Source of the DNA: Candidatus Diapherotrites archaeon LH_S9
GTDB lineage: Archaea; B1Sed10-29; WALL01; JAGXON01
Assembly: GCA_023659865.1 (NCBI GenBank)
Contig: JAGXON010000001.1
Coordinates: forward strand, 45,968-109,967
Direction of reading: 5' to 3'
Length of the DNA stretch: 64,000 nucleotides
Below the pieces are notes generated by a model. The model made no database searches. It was not told the origin of the DNA and was given only the letters and a program-made list of their open reading frames with translations. Numbering within the stretch: the stretch's first letter is position 1; every line of letters begins with the position of its first letter. Both the position numbers and the translations under genes were made by a program. Positions 11,234-34,325 of the stretch are shown in pieces.

Positions 11234-11294
11234 CTTTCCTTTTCTTGGTTGATTTAAATAAGGTTGGGGCGTGTTTTTCCGAAGTTTCCGAAAG

Positions 11295-11873
11295 TTAGAC
11301 TGCTTCTTCAGTTTCTTCCGAATCAGGCTTAAAATCTTCGAGGCGGTCGTCGTTATCTTTGTCCGAAGCGTCAAAGTACCTTACAAGCCTGTAGTTAGAA
11401 ACCTCTCCTAGTTCAACATCTTTTTGGAAAGCATCAGCTATTTTTTCTCTTAATGTTTCTTCTCCGAATCGTTCAACAAGAGCTGAAGGACTGGTATTAG
11501 GTCCGTAAACACCTTTTAGTTCGTTTTCAAAGAGATTGTAATGTTCGTTAACAAAGTCCATCCTTATCTCTGCATTCGCCCACTTGTAGCCTTTTTCTTT
11601 CAGCACCTGCTTTAATTGCGGTCCAGTAAGCCTGAAAACGTCAGGATGAGCAAGTTTTCTTCTTACTTCCTCATCCCAGTTATCCACGTTCTCGAGTACG
11701 TCAACTTTTCTTTCAAAGAATCCTCTGTACCCTATTTCGGATCTTATTTCAGCTTTTTTCTTTTTTTCCTTCCTGGTCTCTTCTCCTAAAACGTCCATAG
11801 CTCTTCGCTTCTTTTCTGGTTTTCCTTCAAAAAGGTCTCTGTCTCCCAACAAATTCTTAAACCACTCGAACAT
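11295..11873 (-). CDS. Hypothetical protein (192 aa)
   Basis: ORF only. The protein is acidic and helical. Confidence 0.35.
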   Translation of the reverse strand: MFEWFKNLLGDRDLFEGKPEKKRRAMDVLGEETRKEKKKKAEIRSEIGYRGFFERKVDVLENVDNWDEEVRRKLAHPDVFRLTGPQLKQVLKEKGYKWANAEIRMDFVNEHYNLFENELKGVYGPNTSPSALVERFGEETLREKIADAFQKDVELGEVSNYRLVRYFDASDKDNDDRLEDFKPDSEETEEAV

Positions 11874-11975
11874 ACTAACATTTTTGTTTTAGAAGTTAAA
11901 AAACTTTATGTTTACGACAACCAAAAAACCGGGGAAAAAACGACGAACAAGAACGAAGAGACGAGGAGATCACTA

Positions 11976-13199
11976 CTAATCCTTGATGTACTTCAAGAGC
12001 GCTTCCCTGCTACGGAAGTCCTTGAGTAACGTGCTTTTTTTCTCCCACTCTTTTCCTAACTCGCTTTCTTTCCGAACGTGACCCAGAGCCTGCTTAAGCG
12101 TGTCTGCTTCAAAATCCGGTTCTTTCATCGCGTTCCGAACGTTTTCTCGAACCTGCCAAACACCAACCGGGCACCAGTAATCCGGAGTTATCTCCCGGTA
12201 AACAATTGCTCCAGCCTGTCTCCGCATATCGCGCAGTTTTTCAGTAACCGCTACTCTTGCAGCGTAGTAACCACCAGTCACCTCGTCAGCGTAGTTAGTG
12301 CGCCCGTCATACCTCTCGAAATCCGTTTTGAACACGGGCTCAGCGTCTTCAGAAACCCATATGTTGCCAGGAACATACGTTTCAATCACTTCAAAACCCC
12401 ATTTGCCAGGGAACAGAATCACAAAGAACTTGTTCCCCCACTTCTCCGAAGAAAAAACCATGTAGTCATTAACTTCCTTAAAGTCACGGACCTCTTTCGT
12501 CATCTCTTTGCTAGCGATGTCGTCAGTGGCCGTGATGCTCCAGCGAGTTGGAACCAGTTTCCTGTTCTGTCTTTCGCCGAGCAATCCAACACTGAATATT
12601 TTGGAGATTTTGCTCACGGGAACGTCGTTGCTTGAAAGTTCTTGAACTCCTTTAACTGCCTTCAAGTCATCGTCGGAAACAATTTTATCAACTTTTCTGG
12701 GCACTGACGGGTTCTCCGTTAACTTGAAATCGCTCAAGCTGCCTGAAGGCCCGTAAGGCGGGGAAACGTCGCTGAAGTTAGTGGAAAGTAAGGGTTTTTT
12801 CCTGAAATGAGTTTCAGTGTCCACAGGATCTTTGCTCATGGCCACTTCCTGTAAAGAAACCAGGTCGTACGATGGATCTGGAGCTGTTTCGACTTCCATT
12901 CCTTTTTTTCCGCGAGCCAGGTCGTATCTCATTCCAACCAGTTCGTTGAGGTTGAAGTCTCCCCATTGTTCAGGCGCGTCCAGGATGTCGGGCTGTCCTG
13001 AGTAAGCTATCATTGGTCCGGAAAAGACTTTTGGGTAACCTATTCGGCCGATGAATACTGATGGGGCTCCAGCGAACAAGTCTTTCTTTATCTTGTCTGA
13101 TTTTTTCTTGGCTTGTCTTTTTTTCTGTATGAGTGGGCACTTGCTTTTCCCGCAGAGCATTTTCGTGCCTTTGCACCTGACGCAATCGTAGTTCTTCAT
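11976..13199 (-). CDS. nreA: NreA-like DNA repair protein (archaeal Nre family, DUF650/DUF651)
   Basis: The N-terminal Zn motif (CVRCKGTKMLCGKSKCP), FAGAPSVFIGRIGYPKV and the overall ~400 aa length match the Nre family. Confidence 0.55.
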   Translation of the reverse strand: MKNYDCVRCKGTKMLCGKSKCPLIQKKRQAKKKSDKIKKDLFAGAPSVFIGRIGYPKVFSGPMIAYSGQPDILDAPEQWGDFNLNELVGMRYDLARGKKGMEVETAPDPSYDLVSLQEVAMSKDPVDTETHFRKKPLLSTNFSDVSPPYGPSGSLSDFKLTENPSVPRKVDKIVSDDDLKAVKGVQELSSNDVPVSKISKIFSVGLLGERQNRKLVPTRWSITATDDIASKEMTKEVRDFKEVNDYMVFSSEKWGNKFFVILFPGKWGFEVIETYVPGNIWVSEDAEPVFKTDFERYDGRTNYADEVTGGYYAARVAVTEKLRDMRRQAGAIVYREITPDYWCPVGVWQVRENVRNAMKEPDFEADTLKQALGHVRKESELGKEWEKKSTLLKDFRSREALLKYIKD

Positions 13200-13259
13200 C
13201 CACTAGTTTTTGGTTCTCGAAAACTTTAAATGTTGTCAGGAGCATGAAATTGAGGGAAG

Positions 13260-14000
13260 ATGGTTAAGATAAATAAGACTGCTAAAGGAAACTTAGGTAT
13301 TTTTTTCCCGGATGAAGTCGTTAAAGAGCTTGGATTAACCGAGAAAGATGAAGTGGAAGTGGAAGTAGTTCACGGAGATGTTGCAGTCCTTTACCCGAAA
13401 GGAAAGACCTCTAGAAAGAAAGGAACAAAGAAGAGCAAGACAAAGAAAGGTGGGAAAGTCATCCAGAAACTGAAGTCGATTCCTTTCTCTCAAAGAACTA
13501 AGGAAAGAGTCGAGAAAGACCTTTCGAAAAAACAGTTAAATAAATTAAAGAATCTGGAGCAGCAGGGAGCAATCAATTTCTACAAGAAAGGGAAGTACGA
13601 AGACAAAGGCGTTTACAGCATCAGTCAAGAGTACTTCGGCCAGCAAGCTAGTGAAGGAAAAAGTAGCGGGATCAAGGAAGAGATCGCTGAAAAAGGTTAC
13701 GTCAAGATTTCGAACAAGAAAAAGATCGGGCAAGCGATCCGAAGCCTTAAGCCTGAAGTGAAGAACGGGAAGATAATCACGGTCAAGGACTTCAAGAAAA
13801 ATCTTTACGCTGTCAAGAACGAGTTGGTTGAGGACCTAGGGAGCAAGATAATCGCTCAGATCGAGAACGGTAACAATGAACTGGAAGAGATACAGAAGAA
13901 CGTTGACGAAGATCCAGGCCTCTGTAAAGCCATCACCGAAATATTGAGAGAATCAGGGGATTTGATTGAAAAAAGAGAGCACGAGTACGAACTGGCCTGA
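13260..14000 (+). CDS. Protein with an N-terminal AbrB/SpoVT-like swapped-hairpin domain and a Lys-rich linker
   Basis: The N-terminus (MVKINKTAKGNLGIFFPDEVVKELGLTEKDEVEVEV) resembles SpoVT/AbrB/PhoU-N DNA-binding folds. Confidence 0.4.
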   Translation: MVKINKTAKGNLGIFFPDEVVKELGLTEKDEVEVEVVHGDVAVLYPKGKTSRKKGTKKSKTKKGGKVIQKLKSIPFSQRTKERVEKDLSKKQLNKLKNLEQQGAINFYKKGKYEDKGVYSISQEYFGQQASEGKSSGIKEEIAEKGYVKISNKKKIGQAIRSLKPEVKNGKIITVKDFKKNLYAVKNELVEDLGSKIIAQIENGNNELEEIQKNVDEDPGLCKAITEILRESGDLIEKREHEYELA

Positions 14001-14391
14001 AAAAGAAGAAGGGAAGACAAACTGGGTTCTAATCCCGATGCTCACAGGTAAAGAGGAACAGGAAAGGTTCTTGAGCAAGGTCAGTGAAAAGAATTCGCGT
14101 GTAGTGCTGGCGAACGTCATTGATTCCACGAGAACTAATTTAAGCCCTCAGGAGCTTGAAGGAAGTATTCAGGAAAAAGATAAAGCTATGGAGGAGGCTG
14201 CGGAATTTCTTAGGATGAAGCGAGTGAACGTTAGCACGGCGGAAGAATGGGGTAAGTTTCCTCAGAAGCTCGTGAATATTTTCAAGAAAGAAGAGCTGGA
14301 TCAAGTTATTGTCTTGAACGACGGAAGAGAAGAAACAGAGCAGAAGATCAAGGAACTTAAGTCAACGGAATTGCCAGTGAAAGTTATATAG
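13966..14391 (+). CDS. Hypothetical protein, possibly USP-like
   Basis: ORF only. The start may be the internal Met at 14038, which avoids overlap with the upstream gene. Confidence 0.3.
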   Translation: MKKESTSTNWPEKEEGKTNWVLIPMLTGKEEQERFLSKVSEKNSRVVLANVIDSTRTNLSPQELEGSIQEKDKAMEEAAEFLRMKRVNVSTAEEWGKFPQKLVNIFKKEELDQVIVLNDGREETEQKIKELKSTELPVKVI

Positions 14392-14448
14392 ATTTCTTCC
14401 TCAAATCCATTGTTAGGCGATAGTGCGAGAAGATATAGTGAACATACT

Positions 14449-15264
14449 TTAATTATTTTTAATCTCAATTGTTTTTCCTACTCCGTATTCTATAAAATTT
14501 TCTTTGTATTCTTCTGCAAACGCCTCTCTAACTGGATCGCCTGTGCAATGAGATGGTGCAACTTTTTTTACTCCAAGTTCTCTAAACTTTTTAACCACAG
14601 CTATAGGGGGATGATGGAAACCTCCCATAACAAGATATGCCTCGTCTTCCTTCATCAAGTCTCTGGCTTTTTTAACAATATTTACAACTCCAGGATGAGC
14701 ACAGCCAGTAATAACTATCAATCCCTTTTCTGAATCTATAATTAGAGATTGCTCTTTTGGAGGCCCATAAAGCTCTCCAGTGGTATAAACAGAATCAGAA
14801 ATTTTTCTAGGGCCAGAAACATCTACAAATTTAGCTCCTTGGCTGGTTATCATATCTCTGATCGAATTAGGAAAAGAACCTGGGATGAATACGGTAACGT
14901 TACTATTTTTCTCTAAAAATCCTTCTAATCCCCCTACGTGATCTTCATGGATATGAGAAATAACTACTTTATTAATTGATTTGGGATCTATATCCTTCTT
15001 CTCTATATTGAAAAGTAAAGTTTCTGCATCTCCTCCAGTATCAAACAATATTAGTTCTTCAGAGGTTTTTATCACGCATCCGAAACCCCAGGCAGTTTTC
15101 AGAGCAGGATCTACTTGGTAGTTATCGTAAACCGAGACTAAGGTTGCTTCAGATATCTCTTTTTTTTCTGGTTCGATATGGATTTCTGGGGAAGTTGCTT
15201 TTTTGGTCTGAATTAAATACCAACTTCCTATTCCTGCTAAGACCAAGATCCCAACTAAAATCAA
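14449..15264 (-). CDS. Metallo-beta-lactamase-fold hydrolase (COG1237-like) with an N-terminal TM/signal
   Basis: The HIHEDHVGG metal-binding motif and a downstream His/Asp are present. It is a tandem paralog of 15287-15928. Confidence 0.65.
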   Translation of the reverse strand: MILVGILVLAGIGSWYLIQTKKATSPEIHIEPEKKEISEATLVSVYDNYQVDPALKTAWGFGCVIKTSEELILFDTGGDAETLLFNIEKKDIDPKSINKVVISHIHEDHVGGLEGFLEKNSNVTVFIPGSFPNSIRDMITSQGAKFVDVSGPRKISDSVYTTGELYGPPKEQSLIIDSEKGLIVITGCAHPGVVNIVKKARDLMKEDEAYLVMGGFHHPPIAVVKKFRELGVKKVAPSHCTGDPVREAFAEEYKENFIEYGVGKTIEIKNN

Positions 15265-15286
15265 GGTTTTGAAATTTTTGTTCGTA

Positions 15287-15928
15287 TTACTCGTCCTCCT
15301 TTATTACTCTTCCTGCTCCTCCTTCAACATATCTCTCTGGAGAAAGAGACTTTATCCCCGACTTATATTGAGTACAATGGGTTGGACAAATCAAATCCAA
15401 GTCCTCCAAAGATTCAGGCCTAGTTCCATGCAAGCCTCCTATAATACCGTAAACCTTGCCAAATTGAGAGGCTACTTGTAGAATATGTGTCATTCTTGGA
15501 TGCGAGCATCCAACTATAACTACAATCCCTTTCTTTGTTTCAATACAGAGCGACTGCTCTATTCCTTCTAACTCGCCTGTGGAGTAAATTCCTTCGTAGA
15601 GCTCTCTGGGGTTTTCTACTTCAATGACTTCTCTTACATTTTTAACCCCTGGAAAAGAAGGAGGAATCCAAACTTTAACTTCGTTATTCACGTTAAGGAA
15701 AGCTGATAAACCTCCAACATGATCAAAATGAGGGTGAGAAATAAATATTTCATGAATTTCTTTAGGATTAATTCCGAGCTTTTGCATATTAGAAAGCAAA
15801 ATATCCCCATTTGCTCCTGTATCAAAGAGTATTTTCCTTCCGTTAGTTTCCACTAGAGCAGAAAAGCCCCAATCAGCTTGAAGGCTTTTTCTATAAGCAG
15901 TATTATCATAAATAATGGTGATTTTCAT
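15287..15928 (-). CDS. Metallo-beta-lactamase-fold hydrolase (COG1237-like), cytoplasmic paralog
   Basis: HPHFDHVGG motif is present, and the architecture is similar to the adjacent gene. Confidence 0.65.
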   Translation of the reverse strand: MKITIIYDNTAYRKSLQADWGFSALVETNGRKILFDTGANGDILLSNMQKLGINPKEIHEIFISHPHFDHVGGLSAFLNVNNEVKVWIPPSFPGVKNVREVIEVENPRELYEGIYSTGELEGIEQSLCIETKKGIVVIVGCSHPRMTHILQVASQFGKVYGIIGGLHGTRPESLEDLDLICPTHCTQYKSGIKSLSPERYVEGGAGRVIKEDE

Positions 15929-16508
15929 TTTTACTACTTAATTTAGTAAGTGTTCATTACTATTTAAGGGGGGGGATCGCTGTATCTTCATCCACACGGA
16001 TGAAGTCTTAGCGACCTCTAGAAGAGGTAAACTCTGCCAATAGTCGCTCGTAGTTCACGATTGCGTATAACGTTCTCAGTGTAAAAGAAGCTCGGCGTAA
16101 GCCGGATTTGAACGAAGCGTAGCCGTTTACACAGCGTTATATGACCTGAATGGTAAGGTTGCAAAGCAACTGCAGTGTTCCGAACCCCGTAAATGTTATT
16201 TTAATCTTTTTTCTTCATATACTTACTGCCTTTAATCTTTTAACTAACTTTTCTGCCTCTGTTTTTGCTCTAACGCTTTCAGGAGGTTTTCCTTTTAGCC
16301 AGGATAAAGAAATGAGGGATACGGCTACAAAGATCTAGGAGTGTTAGAAAAAAAGACAAAAGCAGACCTAAAGACAAAGGAATTAAATCCGAAAAACTAG
16401 AAGAAAAAAGAAGAAGAAAAAAGAAACAAGACGCATTCTAGACTCCTCTTCTTCGCCTCAATATCGTAATCTTCTTTCTTCGTCATCAAACACACAAAAA
16501 GAAACTAG

Positions 16509-17063
16509 TTAACCCCTGTCCCGAAGTTCTTTGAAGTCCTCGAGCAAAACATCTTTCTTGCTTGGATCGTAAGCCACGACAGCCGGATGAAACATTGGGA
16601 TTATTGAAAGACTTCCAGAAAGCCTGTTCACCTGAAAACGTTTTCCGTGAACCCTGCTGATTTTCTCGTTTCCCAGATTATATTTTTCAAGCAAGTACTC
16701 GGTAGCAAAACGCCCGAGAGGAACCAGCACCTCTGGATCAATTTCCTTAATCTGCTGATCCAAGTAAGGTGAACAAGCCTTAATCTCTTTCAAAGTCGGG
16801 TCACGGTTCTTTGAAGGCCTGCACTTCACAACGTTAGTGATGTAAACATCTTCTCTAGAAAAATCAATAGATTCAAGAAGTTCGTCGAGCACGGAACCAG
16901 CTCTTCCAACGAAAGGAAGCCCTTGCTCGTCCTCGTTCCGGCCAGGAGCTTCTCCAACGAACATTATGTTTGCGTTTTCGTCTCCGGCTCCAGGCACTGC
17001 GTTAGTTCTTTTCTCGCTCAACTGGCATCTCGTGCAGTTCAAGATCTCTTCATCCAATTCCAT
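16509..17063 (-). CDS. udg: Uracil-DNA glycosylase, family 4
   Basis: CxxC plus GEAPG and HPA motifs are present (GEAPGRNEDEQGLPFVGRAG ... HPAVV). I placed the start at MELDEE. Confidence 0.8.
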   Translation of the reverse strand: MELDEEILNCTRCQLSEKRTNAVPGAGDENANIMFVGEAPGRNEDEQGLPFVGRAGSVLDELLESIDFSREDVYITNVVKCRPSKNRDPTLKEIKACSPYLDQQIKEIDPEVLVPLGRFATEYLLEKYNLGNEKISRVHGKRFQVNRLSGSLSIIPMFHPAVVAYDPSKKDVLLEDFKELRDRG

Positions 17064-17528
17064 GAAACAACTTTTATTCAAACGAGTTAAATAAACTTGC
17101 ACCAAAAACTTAATACTACCGGCGCTTTCATCCCACAGCTAAAGCAATGGGATTTCCCGCAGTGGTACTAAAAATGTGGGATAAATCCGTTTCTATATAG
17201 TCATGTTTACCTTGAGATGTATGAAAGCCGAAAATCATCAAATAAATAAAATAGGTTAACGCTATTGGTGAATTAGGAGTTTACCAATGATATGGGAAAA
17301 TACTCACAGCTAATGGATGAACACAGCAACAGACGCGCAGGAAAAATACTGAACTACCTAAAGTTCACAATCTGTCCTTCCCAGTTAAACTTCCTTGTGT
17401 TTAAGAAGCAGAGTTAGACGAATAACCGCTAGACGGGGTAGTTGTTGTGCACTCAATTAACAAAGCTATTATGACGATTGAAAGTAAAACCGATATTTTC
17501 ACCTATTTTTTAGACAACACTAGTATCA

Positions 17529-17969
17529 TTAATTTTGTGTCAAAACTTTTAAAGAAATCCCTGTTATTAAAGCATAGAATACAAATATCGCCCACAATTC
17601 AAATAACCATGGGTCTGTTAACAACTTAGTTATTGCTGAAACAAATGCAAAACCAGTTAAAATTCCAGTTGACACTCTCAACCAATTAAAACTCCAATTA
17701 TTGAATTTATGAGAACAAATCCAATCGCATAGTATGGGAAAAGGGAGTACTGCAATAACCCAGATTGGGATGACAGCACCGGTAACAGAAAAAAATAATC
17801 CGGGGACTATTCCCAGATATATACCCAAACAACGAGCACAAATGAATATGTCACATACTTGGATACATTTATAGTATTCCTTTGGTTCATGATGGGAAAG
17901 AAGATAACGTTTAGACTCAATTATCGCGTTGTAGACTTCTTTAAATGTATGTTCAATAGAAGAAGCCAC
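17529..17969 (-). CDS. Multi-pass membrane protein with CxxC motif
   Basis: Four predicted TM segments and a CARC motif. Confidence 0.35.
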   Translation of the reverse strand: MASSIEHTFKEVYNAIIESKRYLLSHHEPKEYYKCIQVCDIFICARCLGIYLGIVPGLFFSVTGAVIPIWVIAVLPFPILCDWICSHKFNNWSFNWLRVSTGILTGFAFVSAITKLLTDPWLFELWAIFVFYALITGISLKVLTQN

Positions 17970-17977
17970 CCTTTCAA

Positions 17978-18403
17978 CTACTTTTCAACATACTTCTTTT
18001 GGAACTCTTCATCTGAAGCAAATAGATAGATTATCCCTTCAACAAATCCGACTATAGTTGGAATCCCAGTCCAACAGAAACATAGATATATGATACCTAA
18101 GGCATTTTTCCCTAAATAGAATTTGTGTATACCTAAACTACCCAATAAGATTCCTAAAATTCCTGCAGTCATTCTATCTTTTTGTGAGGAAGCAAACTTT
18201 TGTCTTTGTGAGGAAGCAGACTTTTGTCTTACGCCGCATTTTGGGCATATTTCAGCTTCTTTTTTGATTATCTCTCCACAACTTTTACAAAAACATTCGT
18301 CCGCTGCCGGTTCTGCTGATGCCATAAGTATCAAATATATAAAAACATTGCAGTTTATAAATGTTTTGAGGTGGGGAGTGCTATTTCTAACCTTTTTTTG
18401 CAT
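17978..18403 (-). CDS. Zinc-ribbon plus TM2-domain membrane protein
   Basis: CKSCGE...CPKCG is followed by a TM2-like GILGILLGSLGIHKFYLGK pair of helices. Confidence 0.45.
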   Translation of the reverse strand: MQKKVRNSTPHLKTFINCNVFIYLILMASAEPAADECFCKSCGEIIKKEAEICPKCGVRQKSASSQRQKFASSQKDRMTAGILGILLGSLGIHKFYLGKNALGIIYLCFCWTGIPTIVGFVEGIIYLFASDEEFQKKYVEK

Positions 18404-18973
18404 AAATATTGTGTATGCCTGAGGAACGGAAAGATGTCAAGACCACGAGGAAAGAGCGGGAAAATACATCCACTCTCCAGAAATAAGCGAGAAAACAAGG
18501 GAAAAGGAGAAATGGCTCGATTTGAACCCAGTTTCTCACTGGAAAGAAATTCAAAACACCATTACGGCGCTCTGCACTACGAAAAATGGAAAGCCTTCAA
18601 AAAATACGTTGAAGACTTCGGAAACCTTGAAGAATACCCCCCAACGCACGTGGTACTATGGGAACTTCCTCGTGTACGCCACGTCACTTGAAGTAGCCGA
18701 AGAAGTGCTAAAAGAAATGGAAAACGTCTTCACAGAACCAACTGAAGGATCAACAGTATACGCAGACGGAAACGTCCAACACTATCACACAGTAGGATTC
18801 TCTAGCTCCCTATCCCCTTCCTAATAAGCCAGAGGTGTTTTGTGGGTGAAGAAGCTGTTTGCTCCAGAGGAGGAATGAGCCGCTGATGCTGGGAAGCAAG
18901 GAGGTCCTGCTGCCAGAGTACATGCCGTTAGAGGCAATCGGCAGGTTCAATAAAATAGAAGAAATAGCGAACG

Positions 18974-19036
18974 CTTAACTTTCACCAATGACTGTGAGTT
19001 AAGGATATTGAGTGCGCAGGGCTCGGCAAAAAGAGC
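18974..19036 (+). pseudogene. Approximately 63-bp degenerate copy of an internal segment of the terminase large-subunit gene (matches 20055-20117)
   Basis: The two segments are about 87% identical by eye. The copy translates to RLTFTNDCELRILSAQG, flanked by stops. Confidence 0.6.
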
Positions 19037-19178
19037 TCAGTGAACGCGGCGGATGCCAGGGGTTTAAAAAGAAAGGACTGGATAATAAGTATAGGTACGT
19101 AATTCTAAAAGATTTAGAGACCAAGAAAACAAAAAAATTACTTTAAGAAGAGATAATGAAAATTAATCAAAAAAATTA

Positions 19179-19631
19179 GTGAGTAATATGACTTATAAAA
19201 ATACTCCGATTCCGGAAGACAAGGACCCAGAAGACTATACCCATAACGAAAGAAGGGCAGAAATACTAAAACATATCATAGATGCTGGCCTAAGCCGTAG
19301 AGTAAATCAGACGGAATTAGCTCAGAGATATGAAGCTTCCCAACCACAGATATCTCGGGACTTTAAAAGGATAAAGGAAGAAATACGGGACACTATTGGA
19401 AACGATATACAGGTGGATGCTTATGCTCTATACCAAAGTTCTATAGCTAAGTTACTTGACCAGGAGAGACCTTATTTAGCTTGTAAGGTTATGGATGACT
19501 ATCTAAAGTTTATATATGGTATAGGAATAGAAAAATCACCTGAAAAAATAGATAGTGAGTGCTCTGATCTTAGGGAACGCTTGTCTGAAGCGGCTAAAAA
19601 AATTGACAAGGAAGATTTTAAGGAGAAGTAA
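19179..19631 (+). CDS. HTH DNA-binding protein, candidate terminase small subunit
   Basis: A winged-helix/HTH segment (LSRRVNQTELAQRYEASQPQISRDFKRI) is present. Its position immediately upstream of terL, separated by 2 nt, supports the call. Confidence 0.4.
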   Translation: MSNMTYKNTPIPEDKDPEDYTHNERRAEILKHIIDAGLSRRVNQTELAQRYEASQPQISRDFKRIKEEIRDTIGNDIQVDAYALYQSSIAKLLDQERPYLACKVMDDYLKFIYGIGIEKSPEKIDSECSDLRERLSEAAKKIDKEDFKEK

Positions 19632-19633
19632 AA

Positions 19634-21025
19634 GTGAATAAAAAGCAAATTACTGAAAACGAAGCAGAGAAATTAATACTCACGAGGAAAGGACGATTTG
19701 CAGTAATTAAAGAAATATTTAATGTACAACCAACACCAGGACAAATGGATATAATAGAATCCATTGCATTAAAGTCTCATTTAAAACGAGTAGTGATCTC
19801 TGCATATACACAATACGGAAAAACGTGGAGCATTGCTATAGGGATATTACTCTATATCTGGCTCCAGGAGAACGATGGTAAAAAAATCGATGTCGTCGCG
19901 CCGAATGAGCAGAGCAAGATACTGGGAGATTATATTGCAAAGCTTATTGCTGGCTGCCCTGTGCTCGGACCTTCACCCCTCAAAAAGACTAACAGGAAAA
20001 GAGAGACCCTTAAGAAAGAAGTCAGCCGTAAACACTTAACTTTCACTAACGACTGTGAATTAAGGATATTGAGTGCACAGGGCCCAGCAGAGAGACTGAT
20101 GGGTCATGGCACGGATTTGCTGGTAATCGATGCAGCTTGTCTGATTGACCCTGAGGTTTATCGCTCTAAGATTAGTCGTGTGTTAGGAGATTCTCCTGAC
20201 ACGAAGCTCGTGGAAACCGGTAATCCATTGAATAAAAATAATCAGATGTGGGAGCATTGGACCGACCCTAATTTCAAAAAAATTCATGTTCCTTACACTG
20301 TTGGTTTAGAAGAAGGACGGGTGAGTGAAGACGTTATAGAAGAGCAACGAAGAGAACTCGACAGTACAACCTTTAAAGTCCTATACAAAGCGGAATTCCC
20401 AGACACTGTCGAGCAAGGACTGATTAGACACTCCTGGAAAGAGAAAGCAGTCCAGAGAGACCCGTTCGACCTAAAAGAAAGCCAGGAAATCGTTGGAATA
20501 GACGTTGCCGAATTCGGTGAAGATAAGACAGTTATAACCACCACAAAACAACTCAATAATAAAGTCAATGTAACAAAAGTAGAATCCTGGGAACGACTAG
20601 ACACCACGGAAACGGCGGATAAAATAGCTGACCACTTAGAAGGACATGAATACCTAGTAGTAGACGCAATAGGGGTTGGGAGCGGCGTAGCTAGCCGCCT
20701 CAAGCAAAAAGGATTCCAAGTAAACGCTATGAAAGTCAATAAAAGTCCCACAAACGAGAAACACAGGTTTACAAACAAGAAAGCGCAATACTATTGGAAA
20801 CTACGCGGTTTATTCGAAGATGGGAGAATCCAACTAAAAGAAGACATGAAAAACAAGGATAAGCTAGAAAAACAATTAAGTCAAATACAATACGAATTCA
20901 ACTCAAAAGAAAAGATTAAGATAAATGACCCACGAAAATCTCCCGATTACGCTGGCTCGTTGATGCTGGCTTGCAGTAAATCCCACGCTGGAACAGGGGG
21001 CGCTATAGTCGGAATTCGTTTTTAA
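19634..21025 (+). CDS. terL: Terminase large subunit (ATPase plus RNase-H-fold nuclease)
   Basis: Walker A (AYTQYGKTWS) and Walker B (DLLVIDAA) are present. The C-terminal nuclease begins VGIDVAEFGEDKTV. The length of 463 aa is typical. Confidence 0.6.
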   Translation: MNKKQITENEAEKLILTRKGRFAVIKEIFNVQPTPGQMDIIESIALKSHLKRVVISAYTQYGKTWSIAIGILLYIWLQENDGKKIDVVAPNEQSKILGDYIAKLIAGCPVLGPSPLKKTNRKRETLKKEVSRKHLTFTNDCELRILSAQGPAERLMGHGTDLLVIDAACLIDPEVYRSKISRVLGDSPDTKLVETGNPLNKNNQMWEHWTDPNFKKIHVPYTVGLEEGRVSEDVIEEQRRELDSTTFKVLYKAEFPDTVEQGLIRHSWKEKAVQRDPFDLKESQEIVGIDVAEFGEDKTVITTTKQLNNKVNVTKVESWERLDTTETADKIADHLEGHEYLVVDAIGVGSGVASRLKQKGFQVNAMKVNKSPTNEKHRFTNKKAQYYWKLRGLFEDGRIQLKEDMKNKDKLEKQLSQIQYEFNSKEKIKINDPRKSPDYAGSLMLACSKSHAGTGGAIVGIRF

Positions 21026-21067
21026 AGAAAAACCATTTTAAAGAAGGTAGTATATAAAGTTAAGTGA

Positions 21068-22342
21068 ATGCATATGAATTTTAAAGAAACACTACAGAAA
21101 CCAGTAAACTATATCAAGAACATGTATCACAAAGACACATCTACCGGCACTGATGCCGGGGACTACAAGATACCACATTTTCCTTATAAAGACCGGTATA
21201 TATACGATGTTGCTAACTACAGCAGTGTCTTGAACAATATTCTTCAAACTATCCAGACCGAGTTATTTAAAAATGGCTGGGAGTTCATTCCCAAGTATGA
21301 ATATATTTGCACCAGCTGCGGGAGAGAGTACGACCACGAGCCCGAACAGAAGAACGATGAAGGCGTACCTATCTGTAGTAACTGCGGTAACATAGTAACC
21401 AAACCCGACAAAAGCAGCATAAGAAACGTGAAGAAACAGCTCAGAAGAGACGTGAACTATAATAATCAAACGCTTACTGAAGTTCTCAAAGAAATCGAAT
21501 GGGACTTAGACGCTTACGACTCCGCTTACTTATATTTAGAGAAGAATTATGAACACGATTCGGACGGCAAACTCGTGAACACTGAAATCGACGAGATAGT
21601 TAAACTGCAACCAATCAGAATGAGAATAATCAAGAACGATAGAGGCATGCCAGCTACTGACCAAAAAGGAGACTCCATCAGATTCTGCCCAGAACATAGG
21701 GGCAAAAAAACAAAGAGAGATTACTGTGAGCAATGCGGACGAGAGACCCTCCCCACCTATTTTGTTAAGGAGAAGGGAGAGGAAAAAAAGTACTTCAGTA
21801 ATGATGAAGTCAAACACCTGAAGAAATACCGCCCGACAGAACCATACGGCTGGAGCCCAGTCATCCCTCTCTGGCAAAAAATACATATCCTTTATTTCAT
21901 GAATAGAGATAAGCCACCGAAGGGCCCCAAGAACTTTGCGAAGTACACAGAAATGAGGAACGGGCTCAAAAAAGAAGTAGATTCAACATACGGAGTCATG
22001 CCATTGTTCCAGGGAAACCTCGAAGGAGTAGGAGGATTGAACAACGAAGGCCAAGAGATTACTATAACCAACAGTGCTATGAGAAAAGGGCAAGAAGTAT
22101 TCAATAAGAAACTATTTCCCTGGCTTTGTGACCAACTGAGTTTAGAACATTGGACCATCGAACTCAATGAAGTCGAAACCAGAGACGTTGCGCAAGAAAA
22201 GCAACAGATTAACCAACGACGTATCCAGAACGCTGTGCAGATGAGTCAGATAGGATTCAACGTAGAATTGGATGAAAAAGAAGATAATAAATACGTCTCA
22301 TTCAAGTATAGCGGGAAAGCGGAAAAACCGAGTGAACAGTAA
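21068..22342 (+). CDS. Portal-like protein (positional inference) with two inserted zinc ribbons
   Basis: A 424-aa protein directly downstream of terL. CTSCG...CSNCGN and CPEH...CEQCG pairs are present. The portal identity is not established by motif. Confidence 0.3.
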   Translation: MHMNFKETLQKPVNYIKNMYHKDTSTGTDAGDYKIPHFPYKDRYIYDVANYSSVLNNILQTIQTELFKNGWEFIPKYEYICTSCGREYDHEPEQKNDEGVPICSNCGNIVTKPDKSSIRNVKKQLRRDVNYNNQTLTEVLKEIEWDLDAYDSAYLYLEKNYEHDSDGKLVNTEIDEIVKLQPIRMRIIKNDRGMPATDQKGDSIRFCPEHRGKKTKRDYCEQCGRETLPTYFVKEKGEEKKYFSNDEVKHLKKYRPTEPYGWSPVIPLWQKIHILYFMNRDKPPKGPKNFAKYTEMRNGLKKEVDSTYGVMPLFQGNLEGVGGLNNEGQEITITNSAMRKGQEVFNKKLFPWLCDQLSLEHWTIELNEVETRDVAQEKQQINQRRIQNAVQMSQIGFNVELDEKEDNKYVSFKYSGKAEKPSEQ

Positions 22343-22464
22343 AAACCTACAACACCCGATACCATTTTTCAGTAAGACAGCCCACTCAAATTAAAAAAAC
22401 ACTCGGAAAAGAACCGAATAAGGCGCGTGAGGAAGTACAGAACCAGATCGAGAAAGAAACGGAC

Positions 22465-22722
22465 GTGAATCTATTTATAAGCAAAGAAGACCTAAGCCAG
22501 AACTTTAGTGAACTTCTTAACGAGCTCTGGAACAAGAGATACAAAAGCCTTTACAAAGACCTTTCTCAGGATAAAAGCAAAGAAGAGAAAGAATGGTGTG
22601 AAGCTGCCATGGCGTTCTGCAATGCATGCGAAGAACTGGGCAGGGAACCTGCGGAGTCGTTGCTTCAAGCAAGAGGGTTGGAAGAGGCAGCTAAAACTAT
22701 AAACTTCACTCCTTCTTTTTAG
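22465..22722 (+). CDS. Hypothetical small protein
   Basis: ORF only. Confidence 0.25.
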   Translation: MNLFISKEDLSQNFSELLNELWNKRYKSLYKDLSQDKSKEEKEWCEAAMAFCNACEELGREPAESLLQARGLEEAAKTINFTPSF

Positions 22723-23164
22723 TTTTATCTTTAGCTCTCAATGCGAAGTGACCAATTATAACAAATACAATCCCTAAAAAGAAACCGATTACTCCCGCAA
22801 TAATCGTGATAACCCCCCCGCCAACCCCGGCACCAATTACTTCTGCTGCATCACTTACATTAACATTAGCTGCAGTATAATTTATAGTATAAATTATCGC
22901 TACAATTGGCATCAAAAAGAATTCAATTGCAAGAGCAACTGATGCCCATCCAAACATTCTTCGAAGGTCATTAACTCGATATAATCCGTATGAAAATCCA
23001 ATCCAACTAATAAAAAACAACGAAACAAGGATAATAAAAAACAACCAAACGGGAGCACCTACAGTGGCGATACCTGTCAACATACACAAAAATAATCCTA
23101 ATATGAATCCAAAAAATGTTGCAAGTCCAATCAGTTTTAGTTTACTGAAATCCATATAACACAC
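22706..23164 (-). CDS. Small multi-pass membrane protein
   Basis: Four hydrophobic helices. Confidence 0.35.
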   Translation of the reverse strand: MCYMDFSKLKLIGLATFFGFILGLFLCMLTGIATVGAPVWLFFIILVSLFFISWIGFSYGLYRVNDLRRMFGWASVALAIEFFLMPIVAIIYTINYTAANVNVSDAAEVIGAGVGGGVITIIAGVIGFFLGIVFVIIGHFALRAKDKTKKKE

Positions 23165-23212
23165 CTAATTACTATTTTTGCGTCTAAATTTACTAATCCA
23201 CTTGTTATATTC

Positions 23213-24319
23213 TCAATTTAAAGGAACACTGAACTCGAATTCATCTTGCAAGAATCCACCACCTTTAAAACGGAATGTACCTGTTCCTGAATCCTTTGGA
23301 ATATTTTTAAATGTCCATGAACCACTTTTAGTTGCTCCAGGTAGTAAAGTGCTACTATAAGTATCGACCTCACATGAAAAACATGGAGAAACATCGTACT
23401 GATGTTTGTCAGAATCTAAAATAAGAATAGAACGAGGTCGGAAATACCAGGTTTTATTACGAATATTTTTAACATCGAATTCAATTTTATAATCATCCCC
23501 ATCAAATCCAGCATATTTAACCGTAAATTTAAATTCATCGCTAGCTACAGTTTTGTCTATAGTATGTTTGGTACTTTCATAATCCCCTGTCACTTCTACA
23601 TTATTTAAGTCATCACTTGATGTTACCTCTTCACCATATAACGCCAACCATACTTCACCATCTTCCTCTCGTTCAAATGCAAGGACAGGTTTGGAATCAG
23701 ACGAATCTACTTCAAATGCCATCCATCCTTCCTGAGCTGAACCTGGATAGAGAGATGTACCAAATTGAGGGTCAGGTTCAACAATCGAACCCCACTCATT
23801 GTACACTCTTCCTGATTCTGACACTACATCAAATTCATAATGTGTAGCATCAAATGCATCATCATCTTCCATAGAAATTAATTCAAATTTTATTTTCGCC
23901 AATATGTAATCCTTATCTGGCTTCGGTGCCTCATTTACCATGCTGGCTTCTTCAATCATTGACCATGCAGCACTTCCGCGTTTTATATCAGTGACAGTTA
24001 TCTTAGCTGAACCTGTTCCACAGAACAAATCAAAATTAGAGATTAGAGGAGTTCCAATCGGAGATGGATTTGCTCTTGAATTAGTAGTTTGAGGATGGGT
24101 GTTGCCGTTGGAATTTGCGTTGGCCTCGGAGTCACTGTTAGAGGTAGCAGAAACGCTGGAACTTGCGTTGGTTGACTGAGGACAATCCTGTGGATTCGAC
24201 ACAGTTGAACCATCTGAACAAACATAGTTAGTTGAACTAACATTAGTTGAACTAACACATCCAGCTAAAACTACAACTCCAATGATAACTAATAGTAGAC
24301 TTAAACGCATGATGAACAC
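23213..24319 (-). CDS. Secreted lipoprotein-like protein with two DUF4352-like beta-sandwich domains
   Basis: A signal/lipobox-like LAGCVSS is followed by a Ser/Thr/Asn-rich linker. Two domains end in the PGxxxxGW motif typical of DUF4352. Confidence 0.5.
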   Translation of the reverse strand: MFIMRLSLLLVIIGVVVLAGCVSSTNVSSTNYVCSDGSTVSNPQDCPQSTNASSSVSATSNSDSEANANSNGNTHPQTTNSRANPSPIGTPLISNFDLFCGTGSAKITVTDIKRGSAAWSMIEEASMVNEAPKPDKDYILAKIKFELISMEDDDAFDATHYEFDVVSESGRVYNEWGSIVEPDPQFGTSLYPGSAQEGWMAFEVDSSDSKPVLAFEREEDGEVWLALYGEEVTSSDDLNNVEVTGDYESTKHTIDKTVASDEFKFTVKYAGFDGDDYKIEFDVKNIRNKTWYFRPRSILILDSDKHQYDVSPCFSCEVDTYSSTLLPGATKSGSWTFKNIPKDSGTGTFRFKGGGFLQDEFEFSVPLN

Positions 24320-24737
24320 CTGCTTTTACTTTTGGTGTTATATAAACATAAAAACATTACTTAATTTCGTAGCATTTTCTAGAATCCCCCACGCCATTTC
24401 TTTCTCACGAGGATTGTCACTAACTGCATACTCCAGACATATTTGTTGATTTGGCGCGTTTTGTTGTTCGTTTGAGTAATTTTGAAAATGCGTTCCCATC
24501 CATTCTTGTTGCATACGTTTTTGATTGCTTCCCAAATTTAAGGGGAAAAAAGGGCATCCCTCTTCTTGTTCAACGATGGGAATCCACCCACAACCTCCCT
24601 CAAGAAAAATTAGCCACTGCACAAGCCCGGAAAGACGGAAGCAAGCAGATAGACATTCCTTTTGAAGACGGAACCCTTTTCAAGTCAGAAAAACCTCGCG
24701 AAGCACACGAAATTAGAGTATTCATCAAAAAGTAATC

Positions 24738-24774
24738 AAAACCTTTAAAAACCATAATGAATACAAATTCATAT
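24738..24774 (+). promoter_or_regulatory. Archaeal promoter (TATA-like CTTTAAAAA) followed by the 8-4-8 palindrome TAATGAAT-ACAA-ATTCATAT, overlapping the predicted TSS
   Basis: The 37-nt block is nearly identical to 29613-29649. Confidence 0.55.
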
Positions 24775-24775
24775 C

Positions 24776-24928
24776 ATGACTAACGGAAGAGGAAGAAAAG
24801 GCGGAAAAGCCCTCGGGCCAGGAGGACAATGCGTTTGCCCTGAATGCGGGAAAAAAGTACCGCACGAGAGAGGCGTCCCCTGCTACAAAAAAAACTGCCC
24901 AAAATGTGGAAGCAAAATGACGAGGTAA
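24776..24928 (+). CDS. 50-aa zinc-ribbon protein with a Gly/Arg-rich N-terminus, not in the ORF track
   Basis: Translation is MTNGRGRKGGKALGPGGQCVCPECGKKVPHERGVPCYKKNCPKCGSKMTR. Two CxxC pairs are present. It ends 4 nt before the next gene and begins just after the operator. Confidence 0.5.
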   Translation: MTNGRGRKGGKALGPGGQCVCPECGKKVPHERGVPCYKKNCPKCGSKMTR

Positions 24929-24932
24929 AAAA

Positions 24933-25424
24933 ATGAAAATAGCAATACCCTCAACAGGAAAATCGATAGACAGCACGATAAGTAACATCTTTGGAAGATG
25001 CCCAGTATACATAATAGCCGAGATAAAAGAAGATCCAGAAACAGGAAAAAAAGAGATAGGAAAAGCAGAAGCCATAGAAAACCCTGCTGTCGGACAAAGA
25101 GGAGGAGCAGGAATAATGGCATCCCAAACGCTCGGCAACGAAGACGTGGACATAGTAATAGCCCCAAGAATAGGGCCAAGAGCATTCAACGTACTCCAAA
25201 AAATAGGCATAGAGATATACCAAGCCTCCGGAAACACCGTGAAACAAAACCTGGACAACTTCCTTGAAAACAAACTAAACAAGATAAACTCTCCCGGCCA
25301 GATGGGCATGGGCCCAAAACCAGGAGCTGGAAGAGGCGCAGGCAGAGGCCAGGGCGCTGGACAAGGAAGAGGACAAGGCGGTGGAGCCGGACAAGGAAAA
25401 GGTAGAGGACAAGGAAGAAAATGA
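24933..25424 (+). CDS. NifX/NafY-like (Nitro_FeMo-Co family, PF02579) protein with a C-terminal Gly/Arg/Gln-rich tail
   Basis: MKIAIPSTGKSIDSTISNIFGRCPVYIIAEI matches the dinitrogenase FeMo-cofactor-binding fold. The tail is GAGRGAGRGQGAGQGRGQGGGAGQGKGRGQGRK. Confidence 0.6.
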   Translation: MKIAIPSTGKSIDSTISNIFGRCPVYIIAEIKEDPETGKKEIGKAEAIENPAVGQRGGAGIMASQTLGNEDVDIVIAPRIGPRAFNVLQKIGIEIYQASGNTVKQNLDNFLENKLNKINSPGQMGMGPKPGAGRGAGRGQGAGQGRGQGGGAGQGKGRGQGRK

Positions 25425-26668
25425 GCGATAACCTAAAGAAAGGAGAGGACGCAGCAGGAAAAGTGAGCATAGTTACTTTTCTTCTAGCTGCAGGGAAAGG
25501 AATCGCTGGAGTGATGACTGGAAGCATAGCTTTGCTCACAGACGCTCTTCACTCCACTGTCGACTTAGTCGTGGCGGTTGCTTCCTGGCTTAGTCTAAAG
25601 CTTTCTCAAAGAGAAGCCGATGAACAGTTCCAGTACGGGTACTACAAAGCAGAGAACCTGGCAGCGTTCGTAATCTCTTTTTTCATCCTCTACGCAGCTT
25701 TCAACTTTGCAATAGAAGGTATAAAAAGGCTCTCGGTTGTAGAACCAATAAAACTGCCTTTCCTGGCAATGGGAGCTACGCTAGTATCAGCAATCGTTTC
25801 CGGATACCTAGTGAAATACTTAAGGGAAAAAGGAGAGGAAACAGGATCTGCATCGCTTTTGGCGAACGCAAAAGAAACTCTTGCAGACGTAATGTCTTCA
25901 TTAGTTGTCTTCGTCGCCATAGTGTGCACTTACCTAGAGATACCTTACGTTGAAGGAGTAGTCACAATAGGAATATCGTTATTTATATTCAAAGAAGGTT
26001 TCGAAACCATTAAAGACTCTTCTTTTGCTTTAATGGACGTCAGCCCAAGCAAAAAACTAGAAAAAGAAGTTGCAGAAGCAGCTAAAAAAGTGAACGGAGT
26101 CAAAGAAGTCAATAACCTGAAACTAAGAAAATCCGGTCCATTCATCCTGGGCGACCTGGACGTTCAGATAAGTAAGTCAGCCGACGTGGAAAGAGCTCAC
26201 ACAGTAGCAGACGAGATAGAGGAAAAAGCAAAAAGAAACGTGAAAGAACTTGAATCAATAGCCGTGCAAGTCGAGCCATTCAAACCAAAGGAAAGAACAG
26301 TTGCAATACCTGTAAAAGAAGATAAAGGAATGAAATCAGAGGTGAGCAATCACCTGGGAAGATGCGAACACATCGTTTTCCTGAACATCACTCCAGAAGA
26401 AAAAACAATAGAAAAAATCATGAAGAACGAGTACAAACAAAAGAAAGTTAGAGCTGGATTATCGCTGTCAAGAGAGTTATGCGAGCAAAAAACAGATGCA
26501 GTAGTAGTGCAAAGAATCGGAGAGATAAGCTTCCACACGCTAAGAGACTGTTTCACCGACATATACAAAACCGAGGGAAAAACAGTGGAAGAAGTATCAA
26601 AAAAAGTAAGGAAAAACCAGCTAAAGCTCTTGAAAGAACCTACAAAAAGATCAGGAGCCAAAAAATGA
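25421..26668 (+). CDS. Cation diffusion facilitator (CDF) metal efflux transporter fused to a C-terminal NifX-like domain
   Basis: Six TM segments with the HSTVDLV motif and a cytoplasmic CDF domain. The C-terminal ~110 aa contain IAIPVKEDKGMKSEVSNHLGRCEHIVFLNI, a Nitro_FeMo-Co pattern. An ATGA overlap links it to the upstream gene. Confidence 0.6.
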   Translation: MSDNLKKGEDAAGKVSIVTFLLAAGKGIAGVMTGSIALLTDALHSTVDLVVAVASWLSLKLSQREADEQFQYGYYKAENLAAFVISFFILYAAFNFAIEGIKRLSVVEPIKLPFLAMGATLVSAIVSGYLVKYLREKGEETGSASLLANAKETLADVMSSLVVFVAIVCTYLEIPYVEGVVTIGISLFIFKEGFETIKDSSFALMDVSPSKKLEKEVAEAAKKVNGVKEVNNLKLRKSGPFILGDLDVQISKSADVERAHTVADEIEEKAKRNVKELESIAVQVEPFKPKERTVAIPVKEDKGMKSEVSNHLGRCEHIVFLNITPEEKTIEKIMKNEYKQKKVRAGLSLSRELCEQKTDAVVVQRIGEISFHTLRDCFTDIYKTEGKTVEEVSKKVRKNQLKLLKEPTKRSGAKK

Positions 26669-27030
26669 AAGTAGCCATACCCACAGACTCAGGAAAAGTC
26701 GCTCCTCACTTCGGAAGAGCCCCAGAATACACTATCGCCATCATCGAAGAAAAAGAAGTCAGCAAAAAACAAAAAATAGATAATCCTGGCCACAAACCAG
26801 GTTATCTGCCGAAATTCTTCAACGAAAAAGGCGTAGACGTCATGCTGGTTAAAGGGATAGGAAGAAGAGCAGTTTCCTTGTTCAACCAGTTCGACATCGA
26901 TATTGTGACAGGAGCTCAAGGCAAGATAGATGAAGTGCTCGAAAAATTCGTTGAAGAAGAACTAGATGAAAAAAGCAATCCATGCAAACCAGGTAAAGGA
27001 AAAGACTACGGAATAGAAAAGGAGGATTAA
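26665..27030 (+). CDS. NifX/NafY-like (Nitro_FeMo-Co family) protein
   Basis: MKVAIPTDSGKVAPHFGRAPEYTIAIIEE is present. I placed the start at 26665, coupled to the CDF stop, rather than the longer track ORF. Confidence 0.6.
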   Translation: MKVAIPTDSGKVAPHFGRAPEYTIAIIEEKEVSKKQKIDNPGHKPGYLPKFFNEKGVDVMLVKGIGRRAVSLFNQFDIDIVTGAQGKIDEVLEKFVEEELDEKSNPCKPGKGKDYGIEKED

Positions 27031-27031
27031 A

Positions 27032-27775
27032 TTGACCAAACTAATGATGATCCTGGCAGCAAGTCTTCTTTCAGCCGTTCTCTGCAGCCTAGGCGTCCTA
27101 GTCATCTGGAGATTCAGAGAATTCGGCGAAAAATCAATGAATTACTTCATGTACTTTGCTTCAGGAGTACTAGTATCAGCTGCATTCATGATAGCTGCTC
27201 CAAAAGCATTCAGCATGAACGAATACGGTCCCATGTTCATGTTGCTCGGTTTCTTATCCATCTTCCTTCTGGACAGATTCATAAACCTTTACGTTTGCCA
27301 CGGTCACACAAAAAAATGTACAAGAGGATTCAGAATAAGCGTAGTAGCGGCAATAGGAATAGCGCTTCATTCATTCGTTGACGGAATAATATACTCAACA
27401 ACATTCACCGTATCCTCCTTCCTTGGTGTGATGACCACTCTAGGACTGATATTCCACGAATTTCCTGAAGGGATAATAACATTCATACTATTCCTTAAAG
27501 GAGGGTTCAGTGAAAAAAAATCCTTGATTTACTCAATACTGATAGCAGCATTAACCACCCCCCTAGGAGCAATAATTAGTTACCCATTCATAAGCACGCT
27601 GAGAGGACCTAAACTAGGAGCAATGGTAGGCCTAACAGCTGGAGTGCTCGCATTCGTAGGAGCATCACACCTGCTGCCGGAAGCGGAAAGAAAAAGCAAG
27701 AAGTACGGAATAATAGCTTTCCTGCTCGGAATAGCAGTAGCATCAGTTCTGGTTGTGGTAAAAGGAGGAGTATGA
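27032..27775 (+). CDS. ZIP-family metal (Zn/Fe) transporter
   Basis: The HEFPEG motif, His-containing TM helices and a length of ~247 aa are consistent with the ZIP family. Confidence 0.65.
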   Translation: MTKLMMILAASLLSAVLCSLGVLVIWRFREFGEKSMNYFMYFASGVLVSAAFMIAAPKAFSMNEYGPMFMLLGFLSIFLLDRFINLYVCHGHTKKCTRGFRISVVAAIGIALHSFVDGIIYSTTFTVSSFLGVMTTLGLIFHEFPEGIITFILFLKGGFSEKKSLIYSILIAALTTPLGAIISYPFISTLRGPKLGAMVGLTAGVLAFVGASHLLPEAERKSKKYGIIAFLLGIAVASVLVVVKGGV

Positions 27776-34221: not shown

Positions 34222-34325
34222 TGGGTCCGCCCGGAGTTGAACCGGGGATCTTCTGCACGTCAAGCAGACGTCTTAACTACCCTTCCCGCAAAGGAACGCG
34301 GAAAACCGGGCTAGACCACGGACCC
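34222..34325 (-). tRNA. tRNA-Val (anticodon GAC) with an approximately 29-nt insertion (putative intron) in the D-loop
   Basis: Minus-strand read: acceptor GGGTCCG/CGGACCC, D-stem GTCT/AGAC, anticodon arm TCTGC-TTGACGT-GCAGA, T-arm CCCGG-TTCAACT-CCGGG, discriminator A73. Total length is 104 nt. Confidence 0.55.

Follow-up and report, generated by a model that had tools for sequence, protein, structure and literature searches.

RESULTS

Lesioned packaging genes of a tailed virus in an archaeal chromosome

The 64,000-nt stretch of DNA analysed here (the window; contig JAGXON010000001.1, positions 45,968 to 109,967, of the Candidatus Diapherotrites archaeon LH_S9 assembly GCA_023659865.1) contains a small group of virus packaging genes that is, with a probability that we put at roughly 0.8, the decaying remnant of an integrated archaeal tailed virus (Caudoviricetes). 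The group consists of three co-directional open reading frames (ORFs) with almost no spacing, encoding a putative helix-turn-helix (HTH) protein in the position of a small terminase subunit (TerS), a large terminase subunit (TerL) and a portal protein (Table 1). The stop codon of the first ORF lies 2 nt before the start of terL. A packaging module of this composition had been proposed in an earlier reading of the same DNA made from the sequence alone (the sequence-only reading), and the family matches of TerL and the portal bear it out; the three-gene unit stands, with its left end moved from 18830 to the start of the HTH ORF at 19179 (or to its ATG at 19188). The earlier reading had left the choice between a decayed provirus and a domesticated remnant. 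This pair of options is supported, and the lesions, the surrounding debris and the lack of an orthologue elsewhere favour the first of them. That is, decay is preferred over domestication because TerL has lost its catalytic glutamate and a nuclease aspartate and the portal appears to have had its clip deleted, and also because a second TerL fragment and a frameshifted gene fragment adjoin the module while no orthologue was found in other genomes.

The terminase large subunit

The identity of TerL is supported by several comparisons. In addition to its PHROG match (phrog_2), the protein scored above the Pfam cut-off for Terminase_6C (30.7 bits; cut-off 22.6), with a weak match to Terminase_6N (18.2 bits; cut-off 22), and 45 relatives of 433-505 aa were collected that show up to 50% identity over 84-98% of the length. 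The profile of this family matched the solved ATPase and nuclease domains of 4zni (P74-26) and 8dkr, so that the two terminase domains proposed for the protein were both recovered.

The motifs of these domains are only partly preserved. The Walker A motif retains its two invariant columns, and the position equivalent to the P-loop arginine R39 of P74-26, which contacts the gamma-phosphate in that enzyme (PMC5389665), is occupied by Gln60 in the window protein, as it is in one relative (P0005). A more consequential change is seen in the Walker B region, which the sequence-only reading had recorded for TerL: its aspartate is present, but the catalytic glutamate is replaced by alanine. In an alignment of 27 TerL sequences, position 167 is Ala in the window protein and Glu in all 26 relatives, and when the family is aligned with the P74-26 TerL ATPase (PDB 4zni) the Asp-Glu pair falls on D149-E150, a register that is fixed by the R139A mutant entry 4znj. 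The glutamate that follows the Walker B aspartate activates water for ATP hydrolysis. Any change of the corresponding residue of lambda terminase, Glu179, is lethal (PMC6379665).

A second change affects the nuclease domain. The substitution D441G is unique to the window protein among the 27 aligned TerLs, and the aspartate is kept even in the distant PDB TerL 8dkr; the other acidic residues of the nuclease (D290, D297, D344 and D438) are all preserved in the window protein. By analogy with the DxxD motif of RuvC, Asp441 may be a metal ligand. In a leave-one-out count, the conserved sites at which the window TerL deviates were R60Q, R98G, E167A, M183V, M325T and D441G. With the catalytic glutamate and an invariant nuclease aspartate both lost, the protein is probably catalytically disabled, to judge from the roles of these motifs in the terminases that have been studied.

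The portal protein and its missing clip

The 424-aa protein encoded downstream of terL, for which a portal-like fold had been predicted, proved to be a portal homologue by its match to phrog_18178 and by tblastn matches at ~1e-20 to the annotated portals of the Haloarcula viruses HCTV-1, HCTV-5 and HVTV-1. It scored 332 bits with a hidden Markov model (HMM) built from four relatives with the window sequence left out. The Pfam portal family PF04860 is present in the relatives, and the window protein reached 16.7 bits against a cut-off of 39.1. Identity to the relatives ranges from 26 to 37%, the best being 37%, and word-indexed protein searches gave only 2-4 portal relatives.

The HMM match is split in two, covering profile positions 47-300 and 373-500, and only 11 residues replace the 72 profile positions in between (301-372). 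The region that is missing is kept in all 84 relatives inspected (4/4 from the databases and 80/80 from IMG/VR, the latter matching straight through). Moreover, in the 30 relatives in which both flanking anchors could be located the anchors are 106-109 residues apart, versus 48 in the window portal. By profile alignment, the missing residues map to positions 277-284, 291-331 and 336-347 of the portal of phage 812 (8q7d). In that portal the clip comprises residues 286-342, between stem helices 264-285 and 343-363, and inserts into the adaptor outside the capsid (PMC12886913). The deletion would thus have removed most of the clip domain together with the adjoining ends of both stem helices. In portals, the clip is also where the terminase docks during packaging.

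The AlphaFold2 models, made from an alignment of five sequences, were poor, with a predicted local distance difference test (pLDDT) score of 56 for the window protein and 50 for the relative P0002, and fold searches with models of such low score are only supportive. The best PDB matches of both models were nevertheless portals, namely those of HFTV1 (8qsy) and phage 812 (8qem). For the window model, the best match was weak (E 0.012, template modelling (TM) score 0.25), and the P0002 model matched the phage 812 portal with an E-value of 3.6e-5. The predicted order of secondary-structure elements agrees between the two models: the segment modelled in P0002 as helix, strand-helix-strand-strand and helix would be represented in the window protein by two helices joined by a six-residue loop.

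The portal also carries two predicted zinc-binding motifs, which had been described as Cys4 zinc-ribbon insertions atypical of portals. The first is indeed a Cys4 motif, and the second is of the CxxH...CxxC type. Neither is atypical of portals of this family, as both are conserved in relatives. The four cysteines of the first (C81, C84, C103 and C106) are common to P0002, P0003 and the HCTV-5 portal, with aligned cysteines also in P0050, and the motif is missing only in P0049; in the second, C207, C220 and C223 do not vary among the database relatives and the HCTV-5 portal, which has Cys in place of His210. Judging from these alignments, the zinc-binding motifs are a trait of the portal lineage and not an anomaly of the locus.

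The HTH protein

The only strong match of the 150-aa protein is to phrog_15023, a family of unknown function, and the signals that point to an HTH domain are weak (HTH_37, E 0.045; phrog_2339, 7e-4). Homologues occur in the haloarchaeal viruses phiH, phiCh1, HCTV-2, HHTV-2 and HSTV-1, where they are annotated as hypothetical, and in HCTV-2 the gene lies upstream of terL. No homology to a characterised TerS family was found, and the protein shows no similarity to the GP3_package-type protein encoded upstream of the closest TerL relative. The small-terminase label is given to this protein on account of its size and position alone.

Relatives of the module in virus genomes

The contigs that encode TerL relatives at 44-47% identity are virus genomes. 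In these, the gene order is HTH gene, terL, a portal gene fused to a Mu-F-like domain, protease, major capsid protein (SU10-type or phrog_24667) and tail genes. One IMG/VR contig of 36.9 kb (L057) combines a TerL of the same clade (45%) with a portal of the same family; its portal matches phrog_18178 in one continuous stretch (66-569) and is followed by a major head protein (phrog_24667). In the window, the block ends at the end of the portal crown, and no match was obtained for the 380 nt that follow. Single-protein scans of IMG/VR gave no close relative or full-length copy, and nothing above 47% identity; a BLAST search for head genes in 36 genome loci with TerL relatives was too insensitive to inform.

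P0006, the TerL relative nearest to the window protein, has as its partners an unrelated portal and a GP3_package-type small terminase, so the packaging module is mosaic, as is usual for tailed viruses. The TerL clade has members in virus contigs of Bathyarchaeota, Aenigmatarchaeota and other archaea, and the Druskaviridae-type portal clade falls together with viruses of marine Euryarchaeota, Thaumarchaeota and Thermoplasmata (PMC8651126). As a separate observation, three chromosomal loci in archaeal metagenome-assembled genomes (MAGs) of Thermococci and Bathyarchaeota (L028, L029 and L036) retain no more than the C-terminal part of TerL relatives, and it seems that archaeal genomes often contain terminase fragments left by decay.

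Absence of other virus genes and debris at the borders

The remainder of the window was searched for other parts of a virus, of which the sequence-only reading had seen none. A tblastn search with every ORF of at least 60 aa from five related virus contigs revealed no relic of capsid, protease or tail genes in the window, and HMM searches of its six-frame translation found no TerL or portal pieces beyond the known genes and one short terL fragment. Pfam scans of 60 window ORFs detected no integrase domain, and no replication gene such as a satellite-like element would use was found among the window ORFs scanned. The absence of capsid, protease, tail and integrase genes was thus confirmed over the 64 kb by tblastn, HMM and Pfam scans. 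Furthermore, no flanking direct repeats or att repeats were found, the nearest tRNA lies 11 kb from the module, and a search with Rfam at a permissive threshold gave no tRNA fragment or other RNA at 17500-24500. The promoter and terminator scan of the window used bacterial models and is uninformative for an archaeon.

On the left, two pieces of debris precede the module. The first is the frameshifted 3′ end of a gene for a DUF2207-family membrane protein, in which positions 195-228 of the Pfam DUF2207_C profile are matched in one frame (E 8.6e-8) and positions 215-247 in the next, together about the final 50 positions of the profile. As the rest of this gene is missing, the fragment shows that the locus has suffered deletions. 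The second is a short piece of another terL sequence, devoid of a start codon and of homologous flanks, which was detected by tblastn (E 1.8e-6) and by a TerL HMM built without the window sequence (E 3.3e-6). It forms a direct repeat with positions 20031-20095 of the full-length gene (86% identical). All four differences within its 16 identical codons are synonymous, a small sample, and on this account the fragment would seem to be a separate allele that diverged under purifying selection rather than a local duplication.

On the right, the border of the viral DNA probably lies somewhere in the tail after the portal gene (22343-22722). The orphan ORF within this tail has no relative but itself among 1.84 billion representative proteins. 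A relaxed BLAST comparison of the tail with the genes that follow the portal in relatives gave a best E-value of 0.086 in a tiny database, which is not significant.

For two genes just outside these borders, relatives are known among phage protein families. The TM2/zinc-ribbon protein (17978-18403, minus strand) matches phrog_10680 at 8e-27, and the DUF4352 protein (23213-24319, minus strand) matches phrog_806 at 7e-10. Both genes might be accessory genes left behind by the provirus, in which case the true borders could be wider. The PHROG matches of the flanking TM2, uracil-DNA glycosylase (UDG), metallo-beta-lactamase (MBL) fold and DUF4352 genes are generic and at domain level only. Two tandem 24-nt repeats, 96% identical, were also noted at 18181-18228 inside the TM2/zinc-ribbon gene.

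Table 1. Positions of the virus-derived genes, their motifs and lesions, and the adjoining fragments in the window
Feature	Position (nt)	Strand	Details
DUF2207-family membrane-protein gene, frameshifted 3′ fragment	18434-18824	+	Rest of gene missing
Fragment of a putative second TerL allele	18969-19034	+	22 codons, 66 nt; TerL residues 133-154
Probable packaging remnant	19179-22342	+	HTH protein (phrog_15023), full-length TerL and portal (phrog_18178)
HTH protein	19179-19631	+	150 aa (147 aa from ATG 19188); phrog_15023 at 1.8e-31
TerL	19634-21025	+	463 aa, full length; phrog_2 at 6.6e-29
Walker A, AYTQYGKT	19802-19825	+	G62 and K63 in invariant columns
Walker B region, LLVIDA	20117-20134	+	D166 kept; Ala167 replaces catalytic Glu
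Nuclease motif, SPDYAGS	20954-20956 (Gly441)	+	Asp in relatives (SPDYADS)
Portal	21068-22342	+	424 aa; phrog_18178 at 3.5e-41
Cys4 ribbon (predicted)	21308-21385	+	C81, C84, C103, C106
CxxH...CxxC motif	21686-21736	+	C207, H210, C220, C223
Portal deletion junction	21908-21940 (residues 281-291)	+	~60 residues absent, in frame
Tail after portal	22343-22722	+	Includes orphan ORF 22465-22722, 85 aa

Conservation, assembly and alternative explanations

In a search of ~15 billion proteins clustered at 90% identity, the three module proteins (TerL, portal and HTH protein) and each of the eight neighbours tested (13.2-25.4 kb) were singletons. Because this holds for every tested protein of the module and of its flanks, no sign of domestication is available from conservation. 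This bears on the first alternative, namely that the module was domesticated and that its three genes are retained by the host for a novel function other than packaging. Such exaptation could account for three long, uninterrupted and tightly spaced ORFs, for a G+C content equal to that of the host, which suggests long residence, and for the fact that the portal deletion is in frame and leaves the wing, the stem remnants and the crown still alignable. However, no orthologue exists in any other genome searched, the best relatives are only 50% (TerL) and 37% (portal) identical and all lie in virus-like contigs, gene debris is present on both sides, the motifs are apparently dead, and no system made up of just these three genes is known. 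We therefore regard domestication as unlikely.

The second alternative is that the truncation is not real, that is, that assembly fused host sequence to part of the genome of a free or polymorphic virus. The independent Logan assembly of SRR14170863 reproduces positions 11074-22472 and 22443-26683 exactly, in two contigs that overlap by 30 nt. This k-1 overlap is typical of a branch in the assembly graph, which would here lie within the tail after the portal and could speak for an artefact, as could the fact that the contig of a sister MAG (GCA_023659035.1; ~98% identical DNA) begins only at window position 25252 and so does not confirm the junctions. On the other hand, both assemblies carry the left junction and the entire module (11074-22472) with the same sequence and without a break, and the two Logan contigs follow one another exactly as in the deposited contig. 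The Logan break is weak evidence of anything special, because the same assembly also breaks in ordinary host genes, e.g. at 26683. Moreover, a TerL without its catalytic glutamate, a clip-less portal and a stray terL fragment are not expected of an active virus, and the composition of the module matches that of the host. An assembly artefact is thus unlikely as well.

Two further readings are weaker still. In one form of domestication, an ATPase-dead TerL and a clip-less portal might co-assemble with the proteins of a superinfecting virus and poison its portal ring or motor, so that selection would keep the module as an interference device; we consider this highly improbable. Least probable of all is a satellite-like, helper-dependent element that would owe its packaging specificity to a small terminase, TerL and portal of its own and borrow capsid and tail from a helper virus: the retention of packaging genes alone and the flanking TM2 and DUF4352 genes as potential accessory genes would fit, but TerL has lost catalytic residues and the portal its clip, neither an integrase or replication gene nor an att repeat is present, and no second copy or relative was found elsewhere.

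The sister MAG allows a limited comparison of the surroundings. Seven tested proteins encoded at 32.5-52.4 kb have a partner there. By contrast, every tested protein from 13260-25424, plus Nre just to the left, is without a 90%-identity partner in it, and since its contig begins at window position 25252 the locus cannot be compared between the strains. The missing left part may be a strain-variable region or merely reflect an incomplete bin. Two differences were seen in the sister MAG near this point: 415 nt inside a ZIP transporter gene (27032-27775) are lacking (window 27167-27581; L050 position 1999), and the start of its contig carries an 87-nt inverted copy of positions 26007-26093.

Chromosomal context

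The remaining part of the 64 kb is archaeal chromosome, with genes for MCM, Nre, XPD, Fen1, a type III RuBisCO, an archaeal PorA, valyl- and methionyl-tRNA synthetases, aIF5A and a diphthamide synthase. Immediately left of the module, all on the minus strand, are genes for TM2/zinc-ribbon, DUF2085 and UDG proteins and two MBL-fold genes. To the right, genes for a membrane protein and for the DUF4352 protein are also on the minus strand, in agreement with the earlier statement that the downstream genes run on the opposite strand, and farther right are metal-transporter genes and genes for proteins with a dinitrogenase iron-molybdenum cofactor (Nitro_FeMo-Co) domain. The base composition of the module blends with this background. 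A G+C anomaly, for which a check had been suggested, is not seen (0.41 for the module versus 0.42 for the window), and tetranucleotide usage is only mildly deviant (z 1.3-2.2).

Several other features of the window were noted in passing. The MBL-fold genes left of the module form a tandem (14449-15264 and 15287-15928, both minus strand) and show a sub-threshold likeness to the phage anti-Pycsar nuclease Apyc1 (PF23023, E 3e-3 and 7e-5). A 92-nt tRNA (34374-34465, minus strand; 57 bits with Rfam), whose anticodon was not named by ARAGORN, probably contains an intron, and a second, borderline tRNA match (29.8 bits) lies at 34222-34286 on the same strand. A methionine adenosyltransferase gene of bacterial type (49261-50403, minus strand; TIGR01034 metK, 557 bits) is found amid the otherwise archaeal chromosome. 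Finally, a gene of the TnpB/IS605 OrfB type with OrfB_IS605, HTH_OrfB_IS605 and Cas12f1-like TNB domains (61487-62629, minus strand) is adjoined by the gene of an HTH_3 protein (63009-63689).

DISCUSSION

We propose that the locus descends from a provirus in which an HTH/small-terminase-like gene, terL and the portal gene would have been followed by a Mu-F-like gene, a protease gene, the major capsid protein gene and tail genes. All genes beyond the portal, and those that had preceded the module, any integrase gene among them, would then have been lost by deletion. The three surviving frames are still open but would no longer encode a packaging machine: TerL lacks its water-activating glutamate as well as an invariant acidic residue in the nuclease, the portal appears to lack the clip, i.e. 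the part that projects from the capsid, and no capsid is left to fill. The piece of a second, diverged terL allele suggests, in addition, that a related virus was once present at this site or recombined there. The order of these events and the loss of function follow from the established roles of the motifs in studied terminases and portals, and both should be read as probable; what was observed directly is the identity of the genes, their lesions and the lack of further virus genes.

Several points weigh against the decay of a provirus as just described. First, the three ORFs are still open (150, 463 and 424 codons) and have operon-like spacing, which means that either inactivation was recent or some selection keeps the frames open. 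Second, deviation at six of 58 conserved sites does not make TerL an outlier for so divergent a sequence, as distant relatives deviate at 5-16 sites. As this number is not unusual, the case for damage to TerL rests on which residues have changed and not on how many. Third, the mapping of the portal deletion onto the clip relies on a remote alignment (E 9e-4) and on low-confidence models. Fourth, the host contig itself appears to be metagenome-assembled.

If the locus is a decaying provirus, it adds one more record of a past tailed-virus infection of an uncultured archaeon. It also calls for caution in annotation, as terminase and portal ORFs that look intact can be functionally dead. For this reason, annotation pipelines should not take such terminase and portal hits for active proviruses or gene transfer agents. 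Beyond the infection record and the example for annotation, knowledge of virus packaging is unchanged.

Compared with known systems, the window TerL resembles the Terminase_6N/6C-type large subunits (phrog_2), among which P74-26 and G20c are the nearest with solved structures. It shares their two-domain organization of ATPase and RNase H-like nuclease, and it keeps the GKT of Walker A, the Walker B aspartate and the nuclease residues Asp290 and Asp344. It differs from them in having Ala for the catalytic glutamate, Gly for Asp441 and Gln for the P-loop arginine, the last being found in one relative as well. The portal, likewise, is related to those of the Druskaviridae (HVTV-1, HCTV-1 and HCTV-5; phrog_18178) and to uncultured relatives in IMG/VR. 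The homology extends over the wing, the ends of the stem and the crown, Cys/His zinc-binding motifs are inserted in the wing, and the portal gene lies next to terL. Unlike these relatives, to which it is 26-37% identical, the window portal lacks the ~60-residue clip and has no C-terminal tail or Mu-F-like domain.

At the level of the whole locus, gene transfer agents and capsid-forming phage-inducible islands are comparable in that virus-derived packaging genes reside in the chromosome without a complete virus genome. However, those systems keep the capsid protein, the protease and usually connectors or tails, none of which is seen here, and their terminases are active and the systems themselves are conserved in related genomes, neither of which is seen at the locus. 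The closest likeness is to the defective (cryptic) proviruses of archaeal and bacterial chromosomes, in which a short block of morphogenesis genes is found among cellular genes. As in these, integrase, capsid and tail genes are lacking at the locus, inactivating lesions are present and gene fragments surround the block. It is distinguished from them by the retention of the packaging trio only, with ORFs that are still open and damage at catalytic residues and in one domain, and by the presence of a fragment that probably derives from a second terL allele.

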